A DNA stretch of 64,000 nucleotides from Heptranchias perlo (taxonomy: Eukaryota), in NCBI RefSeq assembly GCF_035084215.1, contig NW_027139729.1, positions 1,426,001-1,490,000 of the forward strand, read 5' to 3'. Below the pieces are notes generated by a model that was given only the letters and a program-made list of their open reading frames with translations, was not told the DNA's origin and searched no databases. A program made the position numbers and the translations under genes. Positions 274 to 56,586 of this stretch are shown piece after piece; the first letter of the stretch is position 1, and the number at the start of each line of letters is the position of its first letter.

Positions 274-684
<411 letters not shown>

Positions 685-1691: not shown

Positions 1692-2066
1692 TTACTTGGA
1701 GCTGGTGTACTTGGTCACCGCCTTTGTCCCTTCCGACACGGCGTGCTTGGCCAGTTCCCCGGGCAGCAGCAGGCGCACGGCGGTCTGGATCTCCCGGGAG
1801 CTGATGGTGTGCCGTTTATTATAATGGGCCAGGCGGGAAGCCTCACCCGCGATGCGCTCGAAAATATCGTTCACAAAGGAGTTCATGATGCTCATGGCCT
1901 TGGAGGAGATGCCGGTGTCGGGGTGAACCTGCTTCATCACTTTGTAGACGTAGATGGAGTAACTCTCCTTCCTCGACTTTCTCCGCTTCTTGCCGCCCTT
2001 GGCTGGTGCTTTATTCAAGGTTTTCTTGGCGCCCTTCTTGGGAGCTGCTTTCTTGTCCTCAGGCAT
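1692..2066 (-). CDS. H2B: Replication-dependent histone H2B (starts MPEDKK at ATG 2066)
   Basis: Intact ORF with [27 protein letters not shown]...AVTKYTSSK. Confidence 0.97.
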
Positions 2067-2153
2067 TTTCAAACTCAATCTCAGACCCAGAAATGACCCA
2101 AATCCGCTCCGAGTTCGGATTAAATCGGCAGCCCCACAGCCCTATGGTAATGA

Positions 2154-2363
2154 TGATGTGGAGATGCCGGTGATGGACTGGGGTTGACAATTGTAAACAA
2201 TTTTACAACACCATGTTATAGTCCAGCAATTTTATTTTAAATTCACAAGCTTTCGGAGATTTTCTCCTTCCTCACATTTACCTGAGGAAGGAGAAAATCT
2301 CCGAAAGCTTGTGAATTTAAAATAAAATTGCTGGACTATAACTTGGTGTTGTAAAATTGTTTA
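2154..2363. mobile_element. Fold-back hammerhead-bearing Penelope-like/retrozyme-like insertion, copy 1
   Basis: Inverted arms; TSD CTATGGTAATGA at 2142-2153 and 2364-2375; terminus TGATGTGGAGATGCCGGTGATGGACTGGGG shared with copies 2 and 3. Confidence 0.85.
2277..2315 (+). ncRNA. Minimal type I hammerhead ribozyme (copy 1)
   Basis: TTTAC-CTGAGGA-A-GGAGA(AAA)TCTCC-GAAA-GC-TT-GTGAA: core boxes CUGANGA and GAAA, stems I and II, palindromic AAGCUU stem III, CUU cleavage triplet. Confidence 0.8.
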
Positions 2364-3136
2364 CTATGGTAATGAGGGATGGGGGAAGACAATGATTGTG
2401 ATTGGGACTGATGTCACAATATTTTTCCTTTATCGATCTGATTGGATATCTGAAGAAACCAATCAGATTTAATACCTGCCACCAATCACAAACACGCTCA
2501 CACTGCACATTGTCCGGTTTCAGCAATTTGTTCCGAACTGTTGCAGTTCTTCTTCCGGCCAGTAGATGTCCTCAAACCCCGGGTCATTGAAGTTTCCAGA
2601 TGAGAGAGGGACAGAAGATAAACTCATTCTTCACATTATATTGCACGAGTGGGATTTTCAAAAACTGGGAATGGAGAACATTTTATAGATAAAACATTAG
2701 TTGTAATGCTGTATTAAATGCTTGTAATGAATTTAGGGGGTATTATCTATACTGACTTTAATAAGCTTGCTGAAAGGCGGTGCAAATGGCCTTTGAATTT
2801 CCATATAGAAAGGTGTGAGGTGGTGCATTTTGCTCGCGGGAATAAGGAGGCCACATACTGCTTGGAAAATAAGAGTCTAAATGGAGTCGAAGTGTAAAGG
2901 GATTTAGGGGTACAGATTGACAAATCGTTAAAAGTAGCAACACAGGTTGATAAGTCCATAAAAAGCAAACACAGAGGTTTGTTTCTGGAGGAGTAGAATT
3001 GAAAAGCAGATAAGTTATGTTGAACTACAATTTAAACTTTCAAACCTTCTGTCAAACTGTTAAACCTTCCCTTTCTGAAATCCGTGCTGTCTATTCTTTA
3101 TTATATTTTCGGTTTCTCGATGTTTTTCTATTGCAG

Positions 3137-3361
3137 TCATGATGTGGAGATGCCGGTGATGGACTGGGGTTGACAATTGAAAACAATTTTACAACACCAA
3201 GTTATAGTCCAGCAATTTTATTTCAAATTCACAAGCTTTCGGAGGCTTCCTCCTTCGTCATTTTCACATCGTTCACCTGACGAAGGAGGAAGCCTCCGAA
3301 AGCTTGTGAATTTAAAATAAAATTGCTGGACTATAACTTGGTGTTGTAAAATTGTTTACAA
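3137..3361. mobile_element. Fold-back hammerhead-bearing insertion, copy 2
   Basis: Inverted arms; TSD TTTTTCTATTGCAG at 3123-3136 and 3362-3375. Confidence 0.85.
3272..3310 (+). ncRNA. Minimal type I hammerhead ribozyme (copy 2)
   Basis: TTCAC-CTGACGA-A-GGAGG(AAG)CCTCC-GAAA-GC-TT-GTGAA. Confidence 0.85.
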
Positions 3362-4111
3362 TTTTTCTATTGCAGCATTGAGTGAAAGATTCCATGATCA
3401 TTCCGACCACCGGCCTTTAGTTAACTGGTCTATAGTTCCCTGGACTTGTTCTATCTCCTGTTTTAAAATATAAGAATCACATTAACTGTCATCCAGTCCT
3501 CTGGCACTATTCCTTTTTGTGATGATTTTTTCTATATATGTAACAGTGCCTCTGCTGTCCCTTCCCTTGCTTCATTTAATATGCACGGATGCAATCTATC
3601 TGGACCAGGATTTTACCCACCCTTTCTAATTTAAATGTCTTGATATCTTTATTGACCTCTTCCTCTAATATCATGTTCACCCTGTTAATCTCCCGGGTAA
3701 ATACTGAGGCAAAGTAATAATTCAATATTTCTGGCATTTCGCTGACGTTATCTGTTAGTTTATCTTGTGCATCCCTTCGTGGCCCTCAGATATTCTGATT
3801 TTCCTTTTGTTATTTTTGTGCCTGTGGAATAATATACTATTTATTTTTGTATTCCTTGATAATTTGATTTCGTAGTTCCTGTTTGCTTCCCTAATTGTTT
3901 TTGTGACTTCTTCCTAACCTCTTTCCATTCGCTTTTGCCATCACCTTATTTAATATCAAAGAATGAGAAATTCCATCAGCTTGTTGTGTCTGTTCAGGGG
4001 CTGATGTTTGGGAACTGTTTATTGTCTATGATTAAAGTGCCAGAAACCAAAAGGGAGCAATTCAGTCCGAAACTCCACAGAAACACTCTATTTCTCCCTC
4101 CGAGTGAACTA

Positions 4112-4182
4112 AGGTGCTATAATGGTGAGTAGAGCTGCCTTCCAAACAGTTAATTCCAACAGGTTTGAATCCCAGTTCGCTG
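4112..4182 (+). pseudogene. Decayed tRNA-Gly(TCC) paralogue
   Basis: GGTGCTATAATGGTGAGTAGAGCTGCCTTCCAAACAGTT...GGTTTGAATCCCAG matches the intact gene at 45741-45812 but the acceptor and T stems are broken; upstream flank is also homologous. Confidence 0.7.
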
Positions 4183-4454
4183 AATTCAGAAACACCAAGA
4201 CTTGAACCGAATTTGATGATGTTCAGAGCGATAGTGTTTCCAAAACACAAACGGGTCAAATTTACATAAAAATACTTTTAAAATTCATTTATTTCTCCCA
4301 TAACGTTGAATTTAACTCTGATCCTTTGTATTATTATGTGCCCTGATCTGTACAGTGGATACGGAACACAATTGCCCGGATTCAGTGAAATTAATTGATT
4401 TTCTGAAGTCTTTCCCTCTGCTGATTCCCGTTCCTTGTTTCAATTATGTCGGAT

Positions 4455-4565
4455 TAACCTTTCTGATCTATAGAAGGGTCATAGTCCTGAACCGTTAACC
4501 CGAGCTTCCCTTCTCCACAGATGCTGCCGGACCTGCTGAGTCTTTCCAGCATTTTCGGTTTTAAT
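4455..4565 (+). mobile_element. Remnant of a second Penelope-like terminus family with a degenerate hammerhead core
   Basis: GAAGGGTCATAGTCCTGAACCGTTAAC...CCACAGATGCTGCCGGACCTGCTGAG...TTTCCAGCATTTTC, homologous to 40757-40890. Confidence 0.5.
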
Positions 4566-4934
4566 TATTTCTATATTTTATCCCTTTCACTTTTGACGGT
4601 CGCCGTTGAAACTTGCAGATTTGCGCTCAGTTTTTATTTGTGTTTCAGTTCGGTTTATTTGAATTAATATAAATCGAGTCCTGAGAAATCAGACAGAAAT
4701 CTTGTGCAATGTCGAGTGAAACATAATGGGGCAACTTTCGAATGAGCAAAACAAAAACTTTATTATGAATCAATTGTCTAATTTTTCACGGACAAAATAT
4801 GAAAAAGTACGAGAGTAGAAGTTACAGAGAGAAACTATTTCCTCACATTGCACATTGTCCTGAATCTGGAACGACGAAAGATAATGTGAATTTGTTCCAC
4901 TCTGTTACAGTTCTCACTTATGGCCAGTAGATGT

Positions 4935-6400
4935 CAGACTGCATGTGAGTTTGGGATTAATTCTCTGTCCGTCAGTCTCTGTTACTGTATGTGAGTGTGA
5001 TATTCATTCTGTATCCGTCAGTCTCCAGTACAGTCTGTGAGTGTGGGATTCATTCTGTATCTGTCAATCTCTGGTACTATATGTGAGTGTGATATTCATT
5101 CTGTATCCGTCAGTCTCCAGTACAGTCTGTGAGTGTGGGATTCATTCTGTATCTCTCAGTCTCTGGTACTGTATGTGAGTGTGGGATTCATTCTGTGACT
5201 GTCAATCTCTGGGAATGTGTGTGAGTGTGGGATTCGTTCTGTATCTGTCAATCTCTGGTGCTATCTGTGAGTGTGGGATTCATTCTTTGACTGTCAGTCT
5301 CTGGTATTTTATCTCAGTTTGGATTCATTCTGTAACTCAGTCTCTGGGCAAAGTGCAAGTCTGGATTCGTTCTGTATTCTTATTTCAGGTTACAGTATGG
5401 TGTTTCAAACTGTATCTTTAAGTCATTAATGTATGCAAATCTTTCATCTAGCATTAATTTGTAAATATGGATACAGTTTCGGATTTTATTTTAATCAAAC
5501 AACGTGTGTGAGTTTTGTTGTCGGATTACATTTTAATCACTGTGAAGATAATGTACATTTCAATCTTTTACTGTGAAATTATTGGACTGGTATTTATTGT
5601 GTAGCTCAGTCTGGGCTAATGGAATTGATATTGTATCTTTCAGTCTGACACTATGAGATTTTTCGACTGGTATGAAATGTGTGGTTCAGACTGTACTAAT
5701 GGAATTGACACTCTAACTTTCAGTCAGACACTGCGAGAGATTTTTGGACTGGTTTCTGATGTGTAGCTGAGTCTACACGAATAGGATTCACACTGTCTGT
5801 TTCAGTATGATGATGTATGTGAATTTTGGACGGTATATAATGTGTAGCTCAGTCTGCACTAATGGAATTCATACTGTACCTTTCAGTCTGACTCTGCGCA
5901 ATATATTTAGACTGGTTTGTAAGGTATAGTTCAGTCTGCACTAATGGAATTGATACTGTATCTTCCAGTCTGACACTGTGTGAGATTTTTGTGCTGGTAT
6001 GTAACGTGTCGGGCAGTCTGTACTAATCAAATCGATACTATATATTTCAGTATGATACTGTATGTGATTTTTGGACAGGTATCTAATGTGAACCTCTGTC
6101 TGCAGTAAAGGAATTGATATTGTATCTTCCACTACGATACTTTATGCGAATTTTGGACTGGTATATAATGTGCAGCTCAATCTGCACTCATGGGATTGAT
6201 AGTGTATCTTTCAACCTGACACTGAGATTTTTGGACTGGTATGTGATGTATAGCTCAGTCTGCAATAATGGGATTGATACAGTGTCTTTCAATCTGATAC
6301 TGTATGAGAATTTTCGACTGGTATCTAATGTGTACCTCAGCCTGCAGTAAAGGAATTGAAACTGTACATTTCATTCTGACACTATGAGGTTTTTGGACAT
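4935..6400. repeat. Composite satellite block: 46-bp array, spacer, ~80-bp array
   Basis: 46-mer GTGAGTGTGGGATTCATTCTGTATCTGTCAGTCTCTGGTACTGTGT at ~4935-5340; ~80-mer GAGATTTTTGGACTGGTATGTAATGTGTAGCTCAGTCTGCACTAATGGAATTGATACTGTATCTTTCAGTCTGACACTGT at ~5580-6400. Confidence 0.85.
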
Positions 6401-7427
6401 ATGTGAGTCAAATATGGGTAACATCTGAACTGGTATCTAATTTATATCTCAATGTACACTATTGTCATGAATATGGCATCTTTAAACTCATAATGTGTGT
6501 GAGTTGTGGGCTGGTATTTAATTTGAATCTTGGAGTACACTATTGTGATTCATTCTGTATCTATCGATCAGTACCATGTGTCAGTTCTACCTGGTATTTA
6601 ATTTGTAGCTAAGGCTGAACGAATGTGAGATTAACACCGTGCCTTTCAATCTGATAGTGGGTGTGATTTTGGACTGGGAAATATTTATCTGCCGGTCAGC
6701 GATACTGAGTCATTGTGAAATGGAAATTATGTCTTTCTCTCCTGCTCTCTTTGACTGTTGGATTGGGATCAGTGCGCGACTGACTATTTCTGCTGTCTGA
6801 GATTGTGGGACTGATGACTTGTCTGTGTCTCTGTGCTCTGTGAGTGATAAGGTACCTACTGTGTGTGAGAAGGAGCTGGCTGCACTGACTGCTCTTTGTG
6901 CCCCGGGTGGAGTAAACATCACACTGATTCTGGGTCCTTCAAGGATTTAACTGTAGGAAGAAAAAGTATGTCTTGTAATTCAAGAACAGGTGAAGTAGAA
7001 AATACAAAACTGATCAATTGAATCTCTGTTAATAATCATTGTAATAACCACAAATGAAAACCAGCGATACAAAGTGTCAGTGTCTGACTCCACTGCAGTC
7101 CTGCAGCACTCAGCTTCTGCACACCAGGTGTGTTGGGCTGTTTTACAACAATTTAGTGACATCCAGACACAACCCAACCGCTGCACTGATCAATGAATGG
7201 GACTACCGATGGGGACGGGACCGTTGCCCACGTCAGATTTCGAATTCCCTCTCCCTTGGAATGAACAGTTCAACCGAAACAAAACAGCCGCTGTTTAAAA
7301 TGAGTCCTTCAAACTTCTCACCTGATGCCTGCAATAGATGCTCTTTGTATAACTCCCCACATCCTTTCTGTCCGGCTCTGTTTACTGTTCAGTAACAAAC
7401 AGTAAAGTTTAATGGACAGGTATAAAA

Positions 7428-7890
7428 AAATCAGATTTAATACCTGCCACCAATCACAAACACGCTCACACTGCACATTGTCCGGTTTCAGCAATTTGTT
7501 CCGAACTGTTGCAGTTCTGCTTCCGGCCAGTAGATGTCCCCAAACCCCGGGTCATTGAAGTTTACAGATGAGAGAGGGACAGAAGATAAACTCATTCTTC
7601 ACATTATATTGCACGGGTGGGGTTTGGAGAAACTGGGAATGGAGACGAGCTGTAAGTACATTTTGTTAGACCAAACACTACTTGTAATGCTGTGTTAAAT
7701 TCTTGTGATTGATTTCGGGGGTATTGTCAATACTGAGGAAGTATGGGATAAAATAAACTTACAGAACAGCCGTGTAAATGGCCATTGCATTTCAATATAG
7801 AAAGGTGTGAGGTGGGGCATTTCGCTCGGGGGAATAAGTAGGCCACATACTGCTTGGAAAATAAGAGTCCAAATGGGGTAGAGGAGCAAT
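7428..7890 (+). repeat. Direct duplicate of ~2461-2895 (H2B upstream region plus CR1 fragment)
   Basis: Near-identical AATCAGATTTAATACCTGCCACCAATCACAAACACGCTC...GGCCAGTAGATGTCC... Confidence 0.9.
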
Positions 7891-8159
7891 GTATATCGTG
7901 TCCTGGGAAATCAGAGAGAAACACTGCGCAATGTACAGTGAAATATAATGGGGCAAATTCACAACTATCGAATGAGTGAAAGAAAAACTTTATTATGAAT
8001 CAATTGTCTTCATGTTTCACCGTCAAAATGTGCAAAAATACGAGAGTAAAAGTTACAGATAGAAACTTTCCTCACATTGCACACTGTCCTGTTTCTGTAA
8101 CCACGACAGATAATGTGAATTTGTTCCGCTCTTTTACAGTTCTCGCTTACGTCCAGTCG

Positions 8160-11100
8160 AGGTCAGTTTCTGGTACTGTATATGAGAGTGGGGTTTATTC
8201 TGTATCTGTCAGTCTCTGGTACTGTATGTGAGAGTGAGGTTTATTCTGTATCTGTCTGTCTCTGGTACCGTTTTTGAGAGTGGTGTTTATTCTGTACCTG
8301 TCTGTCTGTCTCTGGTACTGTATATGAGAGTGGGGTTTATTCTGTATCTGTCTATCTCTGGTACTGTATATGAGAGTGGGGTTTATTCTGTATCTGTCTA
8401 TCTCTGGTACTGTATATGAGAGTGGAGTTTATTCTGTATCTGACAGTCTCTGGTGCTTTATGTCAGTGTGAGGTTAATTCCATCACTGCCAGTCTCTGGT
8501 GCTGTGTGTGAGTGTGGAATTAACTATGTACTGTCTGTGTGAGTGGGATTCATTCTGTATCCGCCATTCTCTGCTGCTTTATCTCAGTGTGGGATTCATT
8601 ATGTAATTCAGTCTCTGAGACAATGTGCAAGTCTGAATTCATTCCATATTCTTATTTCAGTTCAGAGTATCGTACTTGAAACTGTATCCTTAACACTCCA
8701 AATTATATACAGTTCTTTGTCGAGTATTTGATTTGATAATATGGATACACTTTTCGATTTTCTTTAATCAAACAATGTGTGTGAGTTTTGGAGTGGTATT
8801 ACATCTTAATCTCTGAACTCTATTGTGAATGATAATGTACCTTTCAATCTGTTCATGTTGCAATTATTGGACTAGTATGTAATGTGTAGCTAAGACTGCA
8901 ATAATGGGATTAATTCTGTGTCGGAGTCTAACACTGTGAGAGACTTTTGGACTGGTGAGTAACATATAGCTCAGTCTCGGCTAATGGAATTGAAATTGTA
9001 TCTTTGAGTCTGATATGTTGTGACATTGTTGGACTGCTATATAATCTGTGGCCCTGTCTGCACTCACGGAATCGATACTGTATCTTTCAGTCTAATATTG
9101 TATGAGATTGTTGGGCTGTTATATAATTTTAGCTCAGGTGGTGTGAATAGAATTTAAACTATACCTTCCAGTCTGATCATTTATGGGGTTTGTGGACTCG
9201 TATGTAATGTGTAGCTCAGTCTGTACCAATGGTATTGATAATGTTTATTTCAGTATAACATGAGTATTACCAACATATCGAATATGTCGCTCAGTCTGCA
9301 CCAATGGAATTGAAACTGTATCTTTCAATCTGACACTATGAGATTTTTGGACTGGTATGTAATGCGCAACTCAGTCTGCAGTAGTGTGATTGTGAGATTC
9401 ATTCTGTATCTGTTAGTCTCTGGTACTGTTTGTGAGTGTGAGATTCATTCTGTATCTGTCAGTCTCTGGTACTGTATGTGAGTGTGAGCTTCATTCTGTA
9501 TCTGTCAGTCTCTGGTACTGTTTGTGAGTGTGAGATTCATTCTTTATCTGTCAGCCCCTGGTACTGTGCATGAGTGAGATTCATTCTGTTCCTGGTATGG
9601 TGTGTGAGTGTGGGATTCATTCTATATCTGTCAGTCCCTGATACTGTGCGTGAGTGAGATTCATTCTGTTCGTGGTACTGTATGTGAGTGTAGGATTCAT
9701 TCTATATCTGTCAGTCTCTGGTGCTGACTGTGAGCTTGGTGTATATTCTGCATCTGTGAGTCTCAGGCGTACGATATATAAGTGATGGATTCATTCTGTA
9801 TCTGTCAGTCTCTGGTGCTGTATGTGAATGTGGGATTCATTCTGTATCTGCCATTCTCTGCAACTTTATCTCAGTGTGGGATTCATTCTGTAATTCAGTC
9901 TCTGAGACAATGTGCAAGTCTGAATTCATTCTGTATTCTTATTTCAGTTTACAGTATCTTATTTGAAACTGTATCTTTAATACTTTAAATTATATATAGT
10001 TCTCCGTTGATTATTTAATTTGTAAATATGGATTTCTTTTGATTTTCTTTAATCAAAGAATGTGTGTGAGTTTTGGAGTAGTATTACATATTAATCTCTA
10101 AACTCTATTGTGAATGACAATGTACCTCTCAATCTGTTCATGGTGAAATTACTGGACTGGTATGTAATGTGTAGTTCAGTCTGCAATAATGGGACTAATT
10201 CTGTATCGGAGTCGAACACTGTGTGAGATTTTTGGACTGGTAAGCAATATGTAGCTCATCCTGAACTAAAGGAATTGATACTCTATCTATCAGTCTGATA
10301 CTGTATGAGATTTTTGGACTGGAATGTGATGTGTAGCTCAGTCTTCAATAATGGAAGTGATACTGAATCTTTCAATCTGATTCTCTGAGATTTTAGGACT
10401 GGTGAGTAACATGTAGCTCAGTCTGTGCTCATGGAATTGATGTTGTATCTTTGAGTCTGATAGGATATGAGATTGTTGGACTGCTATATAATGTGTGGCT
10501 CAGTCTGCACTAATGAAATCGATACTGTATCTTTCAGTCTAATGTTGTATGGGATTTTCAGTCTTGTATGTATTGTACAGCTCAGGCGGTACTAATAGAA
10601 TAGAAACTGTATCTTCCTGTCTGCTCATTTATGAGGTTTTTGGACTGGTATATAATGTGTAGCTCAGTCTGTACCAATGGTATTGATACTATTTATTTCA
10701 GTATAATACTGAGTATTTACCAATATATCTAATATGTAGCTCAGTCTGCACTAATGGAATTTATACTGTATCTTTCAATCTGGCACCAGGAGATCTTTGG
10801 ACTGGTCAGTAAAGTGTAACTCAGTCTGCAGTAATGTGACTGTGATATTCATTCTGTATCTGTCAGTTTCTGCTACTGTATGTGAGTGAAATTCATTCTG
10901 TTCCTGGTACTCTATGTGAGTGTGGGAATCATTCTGTATCTGTCAGTCTCTGGTATTGTGTGTGGATGAGGGATTCCTTCTGTATCTGTCAGTCTCTGGT
11001 ATTGTGTGTGGGTGTGGGATTCATTCTGTATCTGTCAGTCTCTCGTATTGTGTGTGGGTGAGACATTCATTCTGTATCTAACAATTTCTGATGCTGTAGA

Positions 11101-13200
11101 TGAGTGAGAGAAATTCTGTATCTGTCAGTCTGTGCGATAATGTGTGAGTGTGGGATTCATTTTGAATCTGTCAGTCTCTGGTACATTGTATGAGTTTGGG
11201 ATTCATTCCATATATCAGTCTCTGGCACTCTATCGGAGTGTGAGATTCATTCTTTATCTGTATCTAATTTGTATTTCCGTTTACAGTATGGTGTTCAAAT
11301 CTGTATCTTTAATACCTTAATGTTGGAATATTATTTCCCAGTCTTTAATTAGTAGATCATGATATATTTTAAAATGTAATGCTGTCAGATATAATCAGAT
11401 AATGTGGGCATCTATTTTTGGACTACTATTAAATCTGTATCGATGGGAAAACAATTGTGAATTTGTGCATCTTCCAAACTGATATGGTGACATTTTTGAA
11501 CTTGTATATAATGTGGAGCTCAGTCTGCATGAATAGAATACTGTATATTTCAGTCTGAATCTGTAACAGTTTTGTTGTTGTGGTTTCTAATGTGTAGCTC
11601 AGTCTGCACTAATGGAATTGACACTGTATCTTTCAATCTGACACTGTGAGATTTTTGGACTGGTACGTAATGTGCAACCAAGCCTGCATTGATGGAATTG
11701 ATACGTTATCTTTCAATCTGTGACTGTGAGATTTTTGCTCTGGTAAGTAATTTGTAACTCAGCCTGCACGAATATAGGTGACTGTGAGATTCACTTTGCA
11801 TCTCTCAGTCTCTGGTACTGCATGTGAGTTTGGGATTCATGCTGTATCTGTCACTCTCTGGTACTCAATTTGAGTGTGGGATTCATTCTGTATATACATT
11901 CTCTAGTACTGTGTGTGGGTGTTGAATTATTTCCGTATAAGCAGTTTCTCATAATGTGTGTGAGTGTGGGATTGATTCTGTATCTGTCAATCTCTGGTAC
12001 TGTGTGTGAGTGTGGGATTCATTCTGTATCTGTCATTCTCTGGTGCTGTGTGTGAGTGTGGGATTCATTCTGTATCTGTCATTCTCTGGTGCTGTGTGTG
12101 AGTGTGAGATTCATTCTGTATCTGTCAGTCTCTGGTACTGTGTGTGAGTGTGAGATTCATTCTATATCTGCAATTCTCAGGTACTGTGTGTGAGTGTGGG
12201 ATTCATTCTGTATCTGTCATTCTCTGGTGCTGTGTGTGAGTGTGGGATTCATTCTGTATCTGTCAGTCTCTGGTACTGTGTGTGAGTGTGAGATTCATTC
12301 TGTATCTGTCAGTCTCTGGTGCTGTGTGTGAGTGTGGGATTCATTCTGTATCTGCAGTTCTCAGGTACTGTGTGTGAGTTTGGGATTCATTCTGTATCTG
12401 TCAGTCTCTGGTACTGTGTGTGAGTGTGGGATTCATTCTGTATCTGCAGTTCTCAGGTACTGTGTGTGAGTGTGGGATTCATTCTGTATCTGTCAGTCTC
12501 TGGTGCTGTGTGTGAGTGTGAGATTCAATCTGTATCTGTCAGTCTCTGGTACTATGTGTGAGTGTGGGATTCATACTTTACCTGTAAGTCTCTAGTGCTT
12601 TATGAGAGTGTGGGATGACCTTGATATCTGTCAGTCCTTGGTACTGTATGGCCAGTGTGGGATTCATTCTGTATCTGTCATCTCTTGTACCGTACTTCAG
12701 TGTGGGATTGAATTTATGTCTGGCAACCTCTCGTACTGTATGTGAGTGTGGGATTCATTCTGTGTCTGTGTGTCTCTGTACTGTATCTGAGTGTGAGATT
12801 CATTCTGTATCTGTATGGAATTATTCTCTCAGATTACATTATGGCGTTCAATACTGTAGCTTTAATGTCTTAATATTTAAATAGTTTTTCACATTATTTA
12901 ATTGGTCAAAATGGATACACTTTAGGATTTGATGCTGGAGGTTTCAATCAGATAATTTGTGTGCTTTTTGGACTAGTATTAAATGTGTATTTCTGTGATT
13001 ACTATTGTGAATGATAATGAATCTTTCAAAATTATATTGTGAATTGGTATGTAATGTGTAGATCAGTCTGCACTAAAGGAATTGATTCTGTAACTTTAAA
13101 TTTTATTTCATAAGATTTTTGGACTCGTGTGTAATGTGTATCTCAGTCTGGATGAACAGAATTGATACAGTATCTTTTAATCTCATACTATGAGTGTATT
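8160..13200. repeat. Higher-order composite satellite: about four cycles of 46-bp array, spacer, ~80-bp array
   Basis: 46-mer arrays at ~8160-8600, 9390-9890, 10840-11260, 11780-12820; ~80-mer arrays at ~8860-9380, 10150-10830, 11490-11770, 13040-13200; related AT-rich spacers between them. Confidence 0.85.
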
Positions 13201-14365
13201 ATAAACTGGTATCTAATTTGTTTCTCAGGTTACACTGTCACAGCATTTCTCAATCTGATACTGTCCGTGAGTTTTGCACTAGCAATTTGTATTCGAATGG
13301 TACACTATTTGAATGGATACTGCATGTATTAAACTCACATGTGTGTGAGAGTTCTGGGCTCGAATTCAATAGGAATCTCGAGGAACATTATTGGGATTCA
13401 TTCTGGACCTTTCAATCGGGTACCATGTGTGATTTCTATCTGGTATTTAATTCATGGCTAATTTTGCCCCTTTGTGAAATAGACAATCTGAGAGTGTGAT
13501 TTTGGAATGGGATTTTTGTATCTCCCTGTCAGCGGGACTGAGTTCGGGGGAAATGGAACAGTGTCTGCCTCACCTGCTCTGTTTGACTGTGGATTGAAAA
13601 TGTGTCTCTGGAATTTGGGATCATTGTGGGACTGAGTACTTCTGCTGTCTGAGACTGTGGAACTGATGACCTGTCTGTGTCACTGTGCTCTGTGAGTGAT
13701 AATGTACTTACTGTGTGTGAGAAGGAGCTGGCTGCACTGTTCCTTGTGCCTCGGGTGGACGAAACATCACATTCATTGTGGATCCTTCACGGGTTTGCCT
13801 GTAGAAAGAAACGTATGTCTGGTAACTCAAGAACAGGTGAGGAAGAAAATACAGAAGTGATCAGTTTAATATCTGTAAATAATTATTTTGAATATCCTTA
13901 AATATAAATCAGCGATTCGAACAGTGTCAGTGTCTGACTCCACTGTAGTACTGCAGCACCCAGCTTCTGCACACCAGGTGTGTTGGGCTGTTTTACAACA
14001 ATGTATTGACATCCAGACACAATCCAACACCTCCACTAACACATGAATGGGACTACCCGATGGGGCAGGGACCTTTGCACAAGTCAGGTTTCTCATCCCC
14101 TCTCCCATGGGACTAACCGTTCAAATGAAACCAAACAGCCGCTGTTCAAAATGTGTCCTTCACACTTCTCACCTGATGCCTGCAATTGACGCTCTTTGTA
14201 TCACTCCCCACATCCTTACTGTCCGGCTCTGTTTCCACTCTTCACTGTCCAATAACAATAAACAGGGTGAGACTGGAACGAAACCAGGAACATTCACTAC
14301 TGGTTTGGGGAGAGAAAGCAGCAATGATTTTAAATAGCAGGTTCTTCCCATTCTCTCTCCCTTAC

Positions 14366-31954: not shown

Positions 31955-32844
31955 TTAACTTGGTGGCGATTGTAATCCTGTCCCGAGGAAAGTGCGGACT
32001 CTCTAAATGTATCACTCGCTACCTGGTGGGAATGGCGGCGGCCGATCTCCTGGTCGTTATCACTGATGTCATAATGTGTCGCATTGTTGTTATTTATTTC
32101 CCAGTTTCATTCTTGACCATTACCCCCGTGTGTCGTCTCATTCTCACCCTGAGTTTAGCAGTCACAGTGGCCTCTGTCTGGTTTACAGTGGTTTTCACCT
32201 TTGATCGATTTGTGGCCATTTGTTGTCAGAAGCTGAAAACAAAATATTGCACCGAGAAAACGGCGGCTGTTGTTATCGGGGTGGTGAGTGCGCTGAGCTG
32301 TTTACTAAACATTCCCATGTACTTTGTAATTGGCCCGGAATATATAATGGACAATGTACCTCGGGGTTGTGTCTTTAAACCGACATTTTTCACTTCACCC
32401 ACATTTGCTGCGTTTGACTTGTTTCATCTTGTGTTAACTCCTTGTCTTCCATTCATTCTGATTTTGCTGTTCAATGTTCTCACCGCCAGGCACATTTTAG
32501 CGGCCAGCAGAGCCCGCAGGGGACTCCGGGGCCGCAGCAATGGAGAGAATCACAAGGATCCAGAGATGGAGAACCGAAGGAAATCCATCATTTTACTTTT
32601 CAGTATATCAGGCAGTTTTATATTGTTATGGAGCGCAGAAGTTTTTTATTTTATCTCTCTGCGTATAACAGACGCCCAGTTCTATACGGTCAGTGACATT
32701 GAGTCAGCCGGATTCATGCTTCAACTTCTCAGTTCCTGCACCAACACTTGTATTTATGCTGTGACCCAGACTAAATTCAGAGAGGAGCTGAAGAACGGGG
32801 TGAAATACCCACTGAATCTAATTGTTACATTAGTTAAATCATAG
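31955..32844 (+). CDS. GPR139/GPR142-like class A GPCR, coding exon 2 (319 aa in total)
   Basis: Acceptor TCTCTCTCTTACAG/TT; G+TT=Val joins in frame to NLVAIVIL; motifs MAAADL, FTFDRFVAIC, LLSSCTNTCIY; AATAAA at ~32875. Confidence 0.9.
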
Positions 32845-50300: not shown

Positions 50301-53300
50301 ATTAAAGCTGCAGTATTGAACTCCATAATGTGATCTGAGACAATAATTATAGACAGATGCAGAATAAATCTCACACTCTTATGGTACCAACGTTGACAGA
50401 GAATGTATCCCAAACTCTCATAATCTACCAGAGACTGGCAGATTAAGTATGAATCCCACACTCACACAGCATCAGAGACTGCATATATCAAATGAATCGC
50501 AAACTCAAACACACTACTGACAAGATACACAATGAATCCCACACAGTATCACGGACTGAGAGATACAAAATGAATCTCTCAGTCACCTACATTAGTGCAG
50601 GCTGAGTTACAAATTAGGGACCAGTCCACAAATCTCAGTGTCAGATTGAAAGATACAGTACCATTTCCATTAGTGCAGACTGAGCTACATATTAATTACC
50701 AATACAAAAGACCAATGCAGATTCAGACTGAAATATACGGTATTCCATTTATGCAGACTGAGCAACACATTGTATATAAGTTCAACATGTCACCATGTCA
50801 GTTTGGAAGATACACTGTATCACAATTGTGTTCACATTGATGCAGATTTAATAGTAGCCAAAAAGTGCAGTGATTCTCTGATTGTAACCTACAGCATCAC
50901 ATTTTAACGTATATAATTACCTACCACTTAAACACTGGGAAAAATTATTTATACATTTATGTATTAAAGATACAGGTTTGAATGCCATGCTGTGAAATGA
51001 GATACAAATTAGATACAGATAAAGAATGAATCTCATACTCAGATCCAGTGCCAGAGACTGACATATAGAATGAATCCCTCACTCACACAATGTCCCACTG
51101 ACTGACAGATACAGAATGAATCCCACACTCACATACAGTAGCACAGACTGACAGATACAGTATATATGTCACTCATATACAGTATCAGAGATTGATGGAA
51201 ATGGAATGAATGTCTCACTCACATACAGCACCAGAGACTGACAGATATGGAATTAATCCCAAATTCACACACGGTGCCAGAGACTGACAGGAACAGAATG
51301 AATCTCATTCAGATACAGTACAAGGGGCTGAAATATATAGAATCAATCCCACACTCACACACAGTACCACAGGCTGACAGAATCAGAATGAATCACAAAG
51401 TACCACAGTCAGTCAAATACAGAATGAATCTCTAAGTCAAATCACTGCAGACTGAGTTACACAAATCTTAGTGTCAGATTGAAAGATAATGTATCAATTC
51501 CATTAGTGCAGACTGAGCCAAACATTATATAGCAGTCCAACACTGTCAGACCATATCAGACTCAAAGATACAACATCAATTCCATTAGCATGTACTGAGC
51601 TACATGTTACACACCAGTCCAAAAATCTCATACAGTAACAGACTGTTAGATACATTATCAATTCTATTAGTGCAGGCTGAGCTATATGTTACATTCCAGT
51701 CCAAAAATCTCAGTGTCAGACTGAGATACAGAATTAATTCCATTATTATAGACTGAGCTACACATTATATACCAGTTAAATAATTTCACCATGGAGAGAT
51801 TGAAAGGTACATTATCATTCACAACAGAGTTCAGAGATGAAGATGTAATACACTCACAAACATTGTTTGATTAAAGAAAATCCAAAAGTGTATCAATATT
51901 TACAAATTAAACACTTGATAAAAAACGGCATATACATTAAAGTATTAAAGATATAGTTTCAAATACAATAATATAAACTGAAATAAGAACACAGAATGAA
52001 ATCAGACTTGCACATTGTCTCAGAGACTGAATTATAGAATAAAACCCAGATTGAGATAAATTGGCTGAGACTGACAGATACAGAATGTATCCTAAACTCA
52101 TATAAGTATCAGAGACTGACAGATACAGAATAAAGCCCACATTCACATGCAGCACCAGAGACAGACAGAAACAGAATGAATCCCACACTCACACACAGTA
52201 CCAGAGACAGACAGAAACAGAATGAATCCCACACTCACACACAGTACCAAAGGCAGACAGATACAGAATAAACCCCATACTCATGTGCAGTACCAGATAC
52301 AGACAGGTACAGAATAAACCCCACACTTATATACAGTATCAGAGACTGAAAAATACAGAATAAACCGCACACTCATATACAGCACCAGAGACAGACAGAA
52401 GCAGAATAAACCTGAAACTCGCATACAGTACCCGTTACAGACAGATACAGAATAAACCCCACACACGTACAGTACCACAGACTGACAGGCACAGAATGAA
52501 TCCCACACTCACACACAGTACCAGACACTGACAGATACAGAATAACCCTCACATTCATATACAGTACCAGAAACAGACAAATAAAGAATAAACCCCACAC
52601 TCATTTGCAGTACCAGAGACAGACAGATACAGAATGAATCCCAAATTCACACAAGGTACCAGAGACTGACATACACTGAATAAACCCCACACTCACATAT
52701 AGCACCAGAGACTGACAGATACAGTATATACCCCCCACTCATTTGCAGCTCAAGAGACTGACAGATACAGAATAAACCCCACACTCATATACAGTACCAG
52801 AGACTGACAGATACAGAATAAACCCCAAACACATCTACAGTATCAGAGACACACAATTACAGAATAAACCCCACACTGACACACAGTTCCAGAGACTGAC
52901 AGATACAGAATAAACCTCACACTCATGTACAGTATCAGAGACTGACTTATACAGAATGAATCTTATACTCACACACAGTACCAGAGACTGACAGATACAG
53001 AATAAAGCCCAACCTCATATATTGTACCAGAGACAGATAAATGCAAAATAAACACCAAACACATCTACAGTATCGGAGATAGACAGATAGAGAATAAACC
53101 CCACACTCACACACAGTACCAGAGACAGACACAGAATAAAAGCTACACTCACACACAGTACCAGAGACAGACAGATACAGAATAAAACCTACACTCACAC
53201 ACAGTACCAGAGCCTGATAGATACAGAATGAATCCCACACTCACACACAGTACCAGAGACAGACAGGCACAGAATAAACCCCACACTCACACACAGTACC

Positions 53301-53390
53301 AGAGAGTGAAAAATACAGAATAAACACCAAACTCTTGTACAGGATCAGAGACTGACAGATACAGAATAAACCCAACAATCATGTAAAGTG
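47358..53390 (-). repeat. Inverted segmental duplicate (B') of ~8160-15810, including promoter and composite satellite
   Basis: Reverse-complement matches: 48170-48900 to 14290-15010; 49000-50300 to 12830-14200; 46- and 80-mers in reverse orientation at 50400-53390. Confidence 0.9.
48430..48819 (+). promoter_or_regulatory. CpG promoter and putative first exon (copy B'), candidate 5' end of the 11-finger ZNF
   Basis: GCGCATGCG x2, GC box, donor CCAGG/GTAAGG at 48819/48820; candidate acceptor TTTTACAG/ at 55307. Confidence 0.55.
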
Positions 53391-53413
53391 CCAGGAAAAA
53401 TCGTTTGGTTAGT

Positions 53414-54865
53414 GTGTGTCTGTAAATGAAGGAAACATGTTGTCTGGTAAGGGAGTGTCTATACATGAAGGAAAAACGGTGAAGGGTCAGGGAATATCTA
53501 TAAATGAAAGAGAAATGGTGACAGGTCAGGGAGTGTCTAAAAATGAAGGCGAAATGGTGACGGGTTACGGAGTGTCCATAAAGGAGGGAGAAATGGTGAC
53601 AGATGAGGCAGAGTCTGTAAATGAAGGAGGAATGGTGATTGGTCCGGGAGTGTCTGTAAATGAAGGAGGAATGGTGATTGGTCCGGGAGTGTCTGTAAAT
53701 GAAGGAGGAATGGTGATTGGTCCGGGAGTGTCTGTAAATGAAGGAGGAACGGTGATTGGTCCGGGAGTGTCTGTAAATGAAGGAGGAACGGTGATTGGTC
53801 CGGGAGTGTCTTCAAATGCAGGAGAATTGTTGACAGGTCAGGTAGTGTCCATATCTGAAGGAGAAACAGTGATGGGTCAGGGAGCGTCTATTAATGAAGG
53901 GAAATGCTGACGGGTCAGGGAGAGTTTGTAAATGAAGGAGAAATGCTGAAGGGTCAGGAAGCGTCTATAAATGGAGGAGAAATTGTGTTTGATCAGGGAA
54001 TGTCTGAAAATGAAGGCAAAATGGTGACTGGTCAGGGGGTTTCTGCAAATGAAGGAGGAATGGTGATTGGTCAGGGGGTGTCTGTAAATGAAGGCGAAAT
54101 GGTGACTGGTCAGGGGGTGTCTGTAAATGAAGGCGAAATGGTGACTGGTCAGGGAGAGTCTGTAAATGAAGGAGGAATGGTGATTGGTCTGGGAGTGTCT
54201 GTAAATGAAGGAGCAACGGTGACTGGTGCGGGAGTGTCTGGAAATGAAGGAGAAATGGTGACTGGTCAGGGGGTGTCTGTAAATGAAGGAGGAACGGTGA
54301 CTGGTGCGGGAGTGTCTGTAAATGAAGGCGAAATGGTGACTGGTCAGGGGGTGTCTGTAAATGAAGGAGAAATGGTGACTGGTCAGGGGGTGTCTGTAAA
54401 TGAAGGCGAAATGGTGACTGGTCAGGGGGTGTCTGTAAATGAAGGAGAAATGGTGACTGGTCAGTGGGTGTCTGTAAATGAAGGCGAAATGGTGACTGGT
54501 CAGGGGGTGTCTGTAAATGAAGGCGAAATGGTGACTGTCAGGGAGAGTCTGTCAATGAAGGAGGAACGGTGATTGGTCCGGGAGTGTCTGTAAATGAAGG
54601 CGAAATGGTGATTGGTCCGGGGGTGTCTGTAAATGAAGGAGGAACGGTGATTGGTCCGGGAGTGTCTGTAAATGCAGGAGAATTGTCGACAGGTCAGGTA
54701 GTGTCGATATCTGAAGGAGAAATGCTGAAGGGTCAGGGAGCGTCTATAAATGTAGGAGAAATTGTGTTTGATCAGGGAGTGTCTGAAAATGAAGGAGAAA
54801 TTGTGATAGGTCAAGGAAAATCTTTAAATGAAGGAGAAATGGTGACTGTTCAGGGAGAGTCTGTC
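53414..54865. repeat. 39-bp purine-rich minisatellite, ~37 units
   Basis: GGTCAGGGGGTGTCTGTAAATGAAGGCGAAATGGTGACT; the + frame reads (GVSVNEGEMVTGQ)n, broken by frameshifts near 53900 and 54540. Confidence 0.9.
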
Positions 54866-55659
54866 GCCAAAATTGGGAGATATCACAGATGGACGGCTTA
54901 CAGGCAGCTATAGGGAGGGACATTGTGTGGAAATGAGGGGCAGAGCATATGCACACAGCCAGAGTCAGCATATTCAGGAGAGGAGAGGGGAATCAGTGAG
55001 TGTGGAACTGAATCCAGCCAGAGTCAGCACCTTCAGGGGAGGAGAGGGAGGGGAACCACTGAGTGTAGAACTGAACCCAGTCACAGTCGGGATCTTCAGG
55101 AGAGAGAGAAAACTTAAATAGAAGGAAAAATGTTGGAGGTGGTGCGATGGGTTTGGGTTTCAGCAGAGGGAGGAGGGTGAGTGTGTGGGACGCGGATTTA
55201 CAGTCTGGGGGAATGAGCGGGAAGAATGTTCTATTGAAACTAGAATTGCCTGTTATGAATTTCTATCCTGTATTCACAGTGAGGACTTTTGTTATCTCCT
55301 TTTACAGGGTATTACAAGGGGAGGATTTGCAGACGAGAAACGCAAACCAAATATCACGTCAAGATCTGACTCCATTCACCAGCACCTGAAGATTATCGGC
55401 CTTAAAATGTCGGACAAATGTTGATCTGTTCTATCTGTGGGAAAATATTTCAAACATCACTGTGACTGCAATAGCAGCGAGACACTCACACCCGATTGAG
55501 AGTGTTCCAGTGCACTGACTGTGGGAAGAGCTTTCACCAGTTACACAGCCTGAAGAAACATCACACCATTCACAGTGGGGAGAAACGAAACACGTGTTCT
55601 CTGTGTGGACGAGACTTCTACTGATCTCCAACGTGGAGAGAGAGAAGGACACCCGCACC

Positions 55660-56586
55660 ATGGAGAAACCGTGGAAATGTGGGGACTGTGGGAGGGGATT
55701 CAGTTGCTCATCCCGGCTCGAAACTCATCGACGCAGACACACTGGGGAGAGGCCGTTCACCTGCTCCGTTTGTGGGAAGGGATTCACTCAGTCATCCCAC
55801 CTCATTGAACATCAACTTGTTCACACTGATAGGAGACTTTTTAAATGTTCTGTCTGTGAGAAGAGCTTTAAAAGAAAAAGTGATCTGCTGATACACCAAC
55901 GCATTCACAGTGGGGAGAGGCCGTTCACCTGCTCCGTGTGTGCGAAGGGATTCATTCAGTCATCCAACCTGCTGACACACCAGCGAATTCACACTGGGGA
56001 GAGGCCGTTCACCTGCTCCGTGTGTGGGAGCAGATTCACTCAATCTTCCCACCTCATTGAACATCAACTTGTTCACAATGATAAGTGTCTTTTTAAATGT
56101 TCTGTCTGTGAGAAAAGCTTTAAAAGAAAAAGTGATCTGCTGACACACGAACGTACTCACACTGGGGAGAGGCCGTTCACCTGCTCCGTGTGTGGGAAGG
56201 GATTCACTCGATCATCCAGCCTACTGATACACCAGCGAGTCCACACTGGGGAGAGGCTGTTCACCTGCTCCGTGTGTGGGAAGAGTTTCACTCGATCATC
56301 CCACCTGCTGAGACATCAGCAAGTTCACATCGGGGAGAGGCCATTCACCTGCTCCCTGTGCGGGAAGGGATTCGCTCAGTCATCCACCCTGCTGACACAC
56401 CAGCGAGTTCACACTGGGGAGAGGCCGTTCACCTGCTTCGTGTGTGGGAAGAGATTCAGTCAGTCATCCACCCTGCTGACACACCAGCGAGTTCACACTG
56501 GGGAGAGGCCGATCACCTGCTCCGTGTGTGGGATGGGATTCACTCAGTCATCCCTCCTGCTGAGTCACCAGCGAGTTCACATGTGA
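55660..56586 (+). CDS. C2H2 zinc-finger protein exon, 11 fingers (from [10 protein letters not shown]), no KRAB visible
   Basis: 308 aa of intact 28-aa units with TGERPF linkers; AATAAA at 56729. Confidence 0.9.

Follow-up and report, generated by a model that had tools for sequence, protein, structure and literature searches.

Palindromic hammerhead motifs in head-to-head insertions of an abundant Penelope-like retrotransposon of Heptranchias perlo

Metazoan Penelope-like retrotransposons (PLEs) carry minimal type I hammerheads (min-HHR) with a nucleotide separating positions 9 and 10.1, a G10.1-C11.1 pair, a palindrome and covarying families (Cervera and De la Pena 2014, PMC4209133), and what these hammerheads do in PLEs is still described as unclear (PMC8557442). 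A promoter is known in the pLTR of Drosophila Penelope (PMC2377424), and one with a putative TATA box and initiator was proposed for the pLTR of rotifer PLEs in a paper that also proposes self-priming for inverted PLE structures (PMC3846280). In vitro, the element PAc (Poseidon, Anolis carolinensis) uses two adjacent RT start sites that define the tail, with both strands cut and extended, a predicted dimer, unprocessed RNA as template, and insertion unaffected by ribozyme mutants (PMC11167929). Elements of the Neptune and Nematis clades have a CX2-5CxxC linker before the nuclease, which is absent in Penelope/Poseidon (PMC8557442), and non-LTR retrozymes are defined as short non-coding tandem repeats with a hammerhead per unit (10.64898/2026.07.22.740005).

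Three insertions and the element they derive from

The window, by which we mean the whole stretch of 64,000 nucleotides that was analysed (G000:C1562:1426001-1490000), contains three repeat copies, at 2154-2363, 3137-3361 and 44828-45017. They are 5'-truncated head-to-head insertions of an abundant PLE, and are organized as follows.

2142..2153: left target-site duplication of copy 1, 12 bp (right copy 2364-2375)
2154..2274, minus strand: long arm of copy 1, pLTR with a ~37-nt tail, starting at U4, hammerhead incomplete
2274..2363, plus strand: short arm of copy 1, without tail, 5' end ~8 nt upstream of C3
2276..2316, plus strand: minimal type I hammerhead of copy 1, with palindromic helix III
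2282 (C3), 2289 (extra A) and 2290-2294/2298-2302 (stem II, pair 5 A-U), plus strand: positions in the copy 1 hammerhead, N7=G
2310/2311, plus strand: predicted cut of copy 1, between these two nucleotides
3123..3136: left target-site duplication of copy 2, 14 bp (right copy 3362-3375)
3137..3260, minus strand: long arm of copy 2, with tail, starting at U4, hammerhead incomplete
3258..3361, plus strand: short arm of copy 2, without tail, 5' end ~19 nt upstream of C3
3271..3311, plus strand: minimal type I hammerhead of copy 2
3277 (C3), 3284 (extra A) and 3285-3289/3293-3297 (stem II, pair 5 G-C), plus strand: positions in the copy 2 hammerhead, N7=C
3305/3306, plus strand: predicted cut of copy 2, between these two nucleotides
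44817..44830: left target-site duplication of copy 3, 11-14 bp (right copy 45018-45031)
44828..44965, minus strand: long arm of copy 3, with tail and a complete hammerhead of the copy 2 variant (44915-44955, C3 44949)
44965..45017, plus strand: short arm of copy 3, starting at ~+33, without hammerhead

The complete motif runs in the order stem I, CUGANGA, extra A, stem II, GAAA, a single A-U pair within a 6-nt palindrome, U17, and the 3' strand of stem I. In copies 1 and 2 the minus arm picks up only at U4, with C3 and the stem I 5' strand missing, so there is one complete motif per insertion; the copy 2 arms overlap by ~3 nt at their junction, as read off the sequence. Copy 1 sits upstream of an intact histone H2B gene (1692-2066, minus strand), ~87 bp from its start codon and between that gene and CCAAT-like boxes recognized by eye near 2390-2490.

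Elsewhere the window contains a histone H2A gene (274-663, minus strand), 3' stem-loops of these histone genes at 203-248 and 1615-1660, a second and more diverged H2A copy (46404-46796, plus strand), and a tRNA gene with an anticodon loop reading TCC (45741-45812, minus strand). Two inverted C2H2 zinc-finger ORFs (38706-39968, minus strand, and 55660-56586, plus strand) are 84% alike over 795 nt, and a 270-aa ORF with hydrophobic stretches (32032-32844, plus strand) resembles, by eye, a G-protein-coupled receptor fragment. Large minisatellite fields occupy ~4840-13400 and 50400-54900, with units of 46, 82 and 39 nt, the 46-nt arrays lying in opposite orientation ~40 kb apart.

Pattern searches of 3.25 Gb of genome returned 82,938 matches to a relaxed hammerhead pattern against two in a reversed control, so the motif does not arise by chance; a tight pattern gave 71,477 matches (0 in the reversed control) and a downstream anchor 105,826. 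Full-length tandem units of 3,081 bp each are present at C1:4.46 Mb with an intact ORF of 918 codons from stop to stop, or 901 aa counted from the first ATG, and the hammerhead sits in the pLTR, one per unit, between the end of one ORF and the start of the next. The ORF product has an RT domain (Pfam PF00078, E 3e-10), and the motifs DKG and YIDD, a CX4CxxC linker and a GIY-YIG-type motif with two cysteines were recognized by eye. Pfam gave no GIY-YIG match in the 901-aa product and a PDB search with its nuclease region gave 0 matches; among its atlas neighbours RVT_1 is present, and GIY-YIG in some. A single ORF with RT, DKG and a putative C-terminal GIY-YIG nuclease (CCHH; motifs read by eye against PMC8557442), together with tandem units, an inverted pLTR, a one-sided tail and a target-site duplication, corresponds to an EN+ PLE, and the linker stands before the putative nuclease as in Neptune and Nematis. 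Judged from these motifs, the element matches what PMC8557442 defines as a nuclease-bearing PLE, probably of the Neptune or Nematis type.

At one locus (L031, G000:C1:4459500-4469400) there are three tandem units, two of them with a complete intact ORF, which are identical over the reference unit and suggest that the lineage with the copy 1 stem II was recently active. A non-LTR retrozyme was considered and rejected, the copies being dispersed inverted insertions or 3.1-kb coding tandems. No published description of the family was found in the main text of the papers covered, which were mostly open-access ones.

Variation of the hammerhead among subfamilies

The earlier note described copy 1 as having stem II GGAGA/TCTCC, N7=G and a U.G wobble in stem I, copies 2 and 3 as having GGAGG/CCTCC and N7=C, and all three as having an extra A between A9 and G10.1. 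All of this holds, with loops AAA and AAG, respectively, and the copy 3 hammerhead (minus strand, C3 at 44949) lies outside the coordinates of that finding. The core reads CUGANGA...GAAA...UH in type I order as in PLE minimal hammerheads, and helix III is A15.1-U16.1 closing two bases inside the 6-nt palindrome, with no inherited variant. The nucleotide between A9 and G10.1 is an A in 173 of 178 arms, a G in five and absent in none, and the G10.1-C11.1 pair is G-C in 55 and G.U in six of 61 aligned haplotypes. De la Pena and Flores reportedly described, in 2001, a viroid hammerhead with an extra core nucleotide, namely the A between A9 and G10.1 of CChMVd. The note's comparison with that viroid missed a closer precedent, since the extra nucleotide is a listed trait of the PLE minimal hammerhead (PMC4209133). 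Rfam at gathering thresholds gave no hammerhead match in the window, and monomers fold with z-scores of only ~-1.6, copies 2 and 3 adopting another fold at minimum energy. We note that the copy 2/3 subfamily repeats the 5' strand of stem I 11 nt further upstream (3260-3315, plus strand; 44910-44965, minus strand); this duplicate is predicted to permit an alternative, lower-energy fold that sequesters the core, and would begin at the presumed transcription start.

Covariation was examined in a sample of 113 merged stretches (661 kb), which yielded 230 arms, 164 of them covering the motif as 67 haplotypes; owing to the way the stretches were searched for, A.C, A-U and G.U are over-represented among these arms. 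The 61 rows of alignment A1 are two window copies (replacing identical haplotypes) and 59 others; six haplotypes, five with junction-like upstream bases and one carrying an insertion, were left out, and stem I pairing would be lower had they been included. The named structure pairs 91.1% of cells in the 61 haplotypes, against 35-48% in slid controls, and 19 cells are changed on both sides, with none of 500 shuffles as high. Two of five structure measures, which count pairs or types, are not above shuffles (200/500 and 308/500), and relatedness of the haplotypes inflates the others. Pair 5 of stem II, which closes loop II, is unpaired in 20 of the 61 haplotypes and the outermost stem I pair in 30; the RNAalifold consensus keeps four pairs per stem and drops pair 5.

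Genome-wide, with stem II pairs 1-4 fixed in the pattern, pair 5 is G-C in 37,550, A-U in 14,997, A.C in 7,750, G.U in 4,885 and other combinations in 6,295 of the 71,477 matches. The statement that all differences fall at N7, in loop II, or preserve pairing is thus correct for the three window copies and fails genome-wide, both for these A.C pairs and for lineages with G.G and A.G. Pair 3 is A-U in 71,477 matches, G-C in 2,542 and A.C in 77 genome-wide, and was G.U in seven of 100 among the first matches listed, which is not a genome-wide figure; all such counts are of copies rather than events, and G-C at pair 3 represents one event. The loop-closing pair is therefore the weakest, and pair 3 supports selection better: mismatch at the inner pair stays at the mutation background, and mismatch at the loop-closing pair has been amplified. 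Inherited first-step changes in inner pairs number four, and each of them results in G.U (crude chance ~0.06 that all four keep pairing). A mutation bias as the whole explanation of the G.U states was rejected, as the strand bias is only ~2-fold (A>G 0.78%, T>C 0.42%) and far below the asymmetry between G.U and A.C at pair 3. A tie between N7 and pair 5 was also rejected; in the sampled arms N7 is G in 37 and C in 13 with G-C at pair 5, and G in 25 and C in 12 with A-U.

The note's proposal of at least two subfamilies is borne out and was an understatement, as a tree of 63 arms built from flanking sequence only resolves several lineages; it is midpoint-rooted, and the directions of change read from it are tentative. 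A-U at pair 5 occurs in two separate clades, A.C in older lineages and again in the clade with G-C at pair 3, and G.G, A.G and C-G in other old lineages, and the youngest clade includes G-C, G.U and A-U. All 14 loci of the clade with G-C at pair 3 show C-G at pair 4 of stem I, and this clade is sister to a U.G form (support 100/97). A tree of the ORF 3' end is poorly resolved, with five of 29 branches starred.

Inherited variants, defined as those shared by at least three events among 74 long arms (49 events), are found in one of 11 core columns (a CpG change), one of eight in inner stem II, two of eight in stem I, five of the six that make up N7, the loop and pair 5, 44 of 56 on the upstream side, and 10 of 51 on the downstream side. 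The core differs from the upstream flank (Fisher p 2e-5) and not from the downstream pLTR (p 0.67), so that a protein-binding or promoter constraint could explain part of its conservation. The rate of rare variants is 1.3% for the core and 1.8-1.9% for the flanks, and mutations of the C11.1-G12 CpG are seen in 10 of 128 and six of 121 events. A core changing at the same rate as its flanks had been named as grounds for doubt; it is more constant than the upstream side among inherited variants, and neither the downstream comparison nor the similar decay of individual copies separates the two. Selection probably acts on source elements, and inserted copies decay. In the source lineages, selection for RNA structure is accordingly supported for the core and for four inner pairs in each of stems I and II, by pair 3 and by the upstream comparison, and not for the highlighted pair 5, which is mismatched in at least two separate lineages.

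Arms, 5' ends and alternative explanations

Among 79 head-to-head neighbours, 65 have a target-site duplication of at least 9 bp, 57 of them of 12-14 bp. These 65 insertions comprise 57 with one long and one short arm, eight with a degraded end, and none with two long or two short arms; two long-long neighbours are present among the 79, both without a duplication. Both arms cover stem II in 56 pairs, of which 41 show no diagnostic difference (5.8% expected under random pairing), nine show one and six at least two; one of these six is without a duplication and probably reflects two insertions, leaving five of 55. The idea that both arms were copied from the same template is hence upheld for the source lineage, at which level 41 of 56 match, and not for a single RNA molecule. 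That both arms carry the same variant is likewise true of copies 1 and 2 and not of copy 3, the second arm of which starts ~33 nt downstream of C3 and has no hammerhead. Two insertions with 12-bp duplications (G000:C1:3868815-3869742 and C1:4023037-4023278) have arms with different loop II variants, with three linked differences, reflecting either two templates or later gene conversion. Four junctions (L224, L233, L236 and L243) bring together an arm that runs to the stem I 5' strand and one that begins with the 3' strand, suggesting that these arms were joined through stem I complementarity.

In a set of 101 arms selected solely with the downstream anchor, the 5' end falls between -25 and +7 of C3 in 42, between -118 and -26 in 10 and between +22 and +52 in 13, and the other 36 extend further. 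In 54 of 74 long arms the 75 nt upstream of C3 contain a TATA-type motif, at 35-51 nt; the 75 nt beyond contain one in a single arm of the 74. Of 86 short arms, 28 have their 5' end 28-31 nt downstream of the TATA-type motif, against 16.8 with shuffled TATA offsets (permutation p 0.0004), and the peak shifts with subfamily, from about -16 where the TATA is at -45 to -9 where it is at -39; 5' ends are spread in a subfamily with the TATA at -38, and each of these positions hinges on the match between an arm and a long arm from the subfamily it belongs to. RNA polymerase II usually starts ~30 nt after a TATA box, and we infer a transcription start from these 5' ends. A cap-derived extra G was not seen at that position (G in six of 28 versus 22 of 58), and no description of the TATA-linked 5' ends was found in the mostly open-access papers covered. 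Neither is there a cleavage footprint in the form of an excess of 5' ends at the predicted cut, with 111 matches at +30 versus 153 at +32. By eye, 29 of 30 inspected loci at the cut and 21 of 30 two bases downstream are true truncations, four of the latter having a flank in common, giving corrected values of ~107 and 90-107, or ~0.4% per position, for this downstream comparison only. This is in line with the in vitro report of unprocessed RNA as the main template (PMC11167929).

We consider it probable that these are 5'-truncated head-to-head PLE insertions whose pLTR hammerhead is predicted to need dimerization for folding and cutting, that its core and inner pairs are likely selected in a few source elements, and that N7, loop II and the loop-closing pair drift between subfamilies. 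The RNA would start ~30 nt after the TATA box, 9-16 nt upstream of C3, and the target would be cut by the element's protein with a 12-14-nt stagger. One cDNA would then be primed from each target end, each at one of two fixed start sites ~37 nt apart, and the cDNAs would reach the 5' end of the RNA or stop earlier and be joined via short overlaps. The two RNAs would usually come from the same source lineage, giving matching arms; the template would mostly be uncut RNA, and inserted copies would decay neutrally. A more speculative and on balance improbable extension is that the hammerhead lies at the very 5' end of the mRNA (TATA+30, ~40 nt before the cut) and mainly pairs two RNAs by the palindrome in a dimeric ribonucleoprotein, each RNA being primed from one cut end at its own start site; cleavage would then be a dimer-only decapping or shut-off, and insertions with two subfamilies would record RNA heterodimers.

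Other explanations account for parts of these data. That the A-U/G-C change at pair 5 is itself a selected compensatory change, with both arms formed from one RNA or cDNA molecule by fold-back, is unlikely as a whole. A.C at pair 5 is rarer than its margins predict (~15,800 expected), A-U and G-C are over-represented in the 2x2 table, and the youngest clade combines G-C, G.U and A-U, but A.C recurs in older lineages and in the pair-3 G-C clade, G.G and A.G lineages exist, and RNAalifold drops the pair. Fold-back would suit the 41 of 56 arm pairs matching at all diagnostic sites, the four pairs that share rare variants, and the self-priming proposed earlier (PMC3846280); against it are the five of 55 pairs differing at two or more diagnostic sites, and the fixed endpoint of the second arm, ~37 nt short of that of the first, in 57 of 65 insertions; a second start site fits this better. 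The matching of arms could also reflect post-insertion gene conversion in the hairpin, with discordant arms converted by other copies and arm identity uninformative on templates. In its favour are the more than 100,000 homologous copies (the downstream-anchor matches) and the discordant arm at C1:3868815, in which a loop from one lineage is combined with upstream sequence from a different one; nonetheless, arms separated by up to 3.4 kb agree no less well than those that abut, and private differences between the arms of older pairs indicate that homogenisation is not continuous, so we regard this as quite doubtful.

A catalytically vestigial hammerhead, conserved through overlap with promoter, protein-binding or RNA-pairing functions and with G.U-rich variation from mutation bias, seems to us rather unlikely. 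It would accommodate the equal conservation of the downstream pLTR, the unmarked cut (5' ends there about equal to those two bases on once non-truncations are removed), and the lack of effect of ribozyme mutants on insertion in vitro (PMC11167929). It is at odds with the fixation of all 11 core positions in every lineage, except for the recurrent CpG change, while the free position N7 varies, and the ~2-fold strand bias falls far short of the pair 3 asymmetry.

The extra nucleotide and subfamily covariation are already published PLE hammerhead traits (PMC4209133), and the finding as first written repeats them and adds little alone. At three base pairs the ~83,000 copies include both end states together with the wobble forms between them, and there are also young, intact source elements; natural variants are thus at hand for tests of mismatch and rescue. 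The 5' ends that track the TATA, the strict long-plus-short arms, and the absence of a mark at the cut site narrow the function of the hammerhead, pointing to an uncut RNA as the one copied, with the ribozyme likely at its 5' end.

Relationship to described elements

The motif resembles the min-HHR of PMC4209133 in its type I topology, short helix I, palindromic helix III, extra nucleotide and G10.1-C11.1 pair, and in its families showing covariation and compensatory change, its truncated copies dispersed by the thousand and its opposite-strand pairs. It differs in copy number (~83,000 versus the 2,000-9,000 quoted there) and in helix II, which is 4-5 bp rather than the 7-8 bp of schistosome motifs, and no cartilaginous fish is named in the available text of that paper. 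There is no sign of relationship to the viroid hammerhead; the element is not a viroid, and its monomer has no stable helix III.

As in other EN+ PLE insertions (PMC3846280, PMC8557442), a 5'-truncated copy is inverted head-to-head, flanked by a target-site duplication and bears a 30-40-bp tail on one end only, and full-length units are in tandem; a putative TATA box in the pLTR is shared with the elements of PMC3846280. Long-plus-short pairing (57/65) and 5' ends relative to the TATA are counted here on many copies, and the available text of those two papers contains no such counts. The element is like PAc in having two start sites that define the tail and in the cutting and extension of both strands, as suggested here by arm geometry, and the protein-assisted hammerhead of PAc is not needed for insertion (PMC11167929). 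The ORF starts inside the hammerhead in PAc, whereas here the first ATG is at the tail end, ~120 nt after C3, and the protein has the CX4CxxC linker that is absent in Poseidon.
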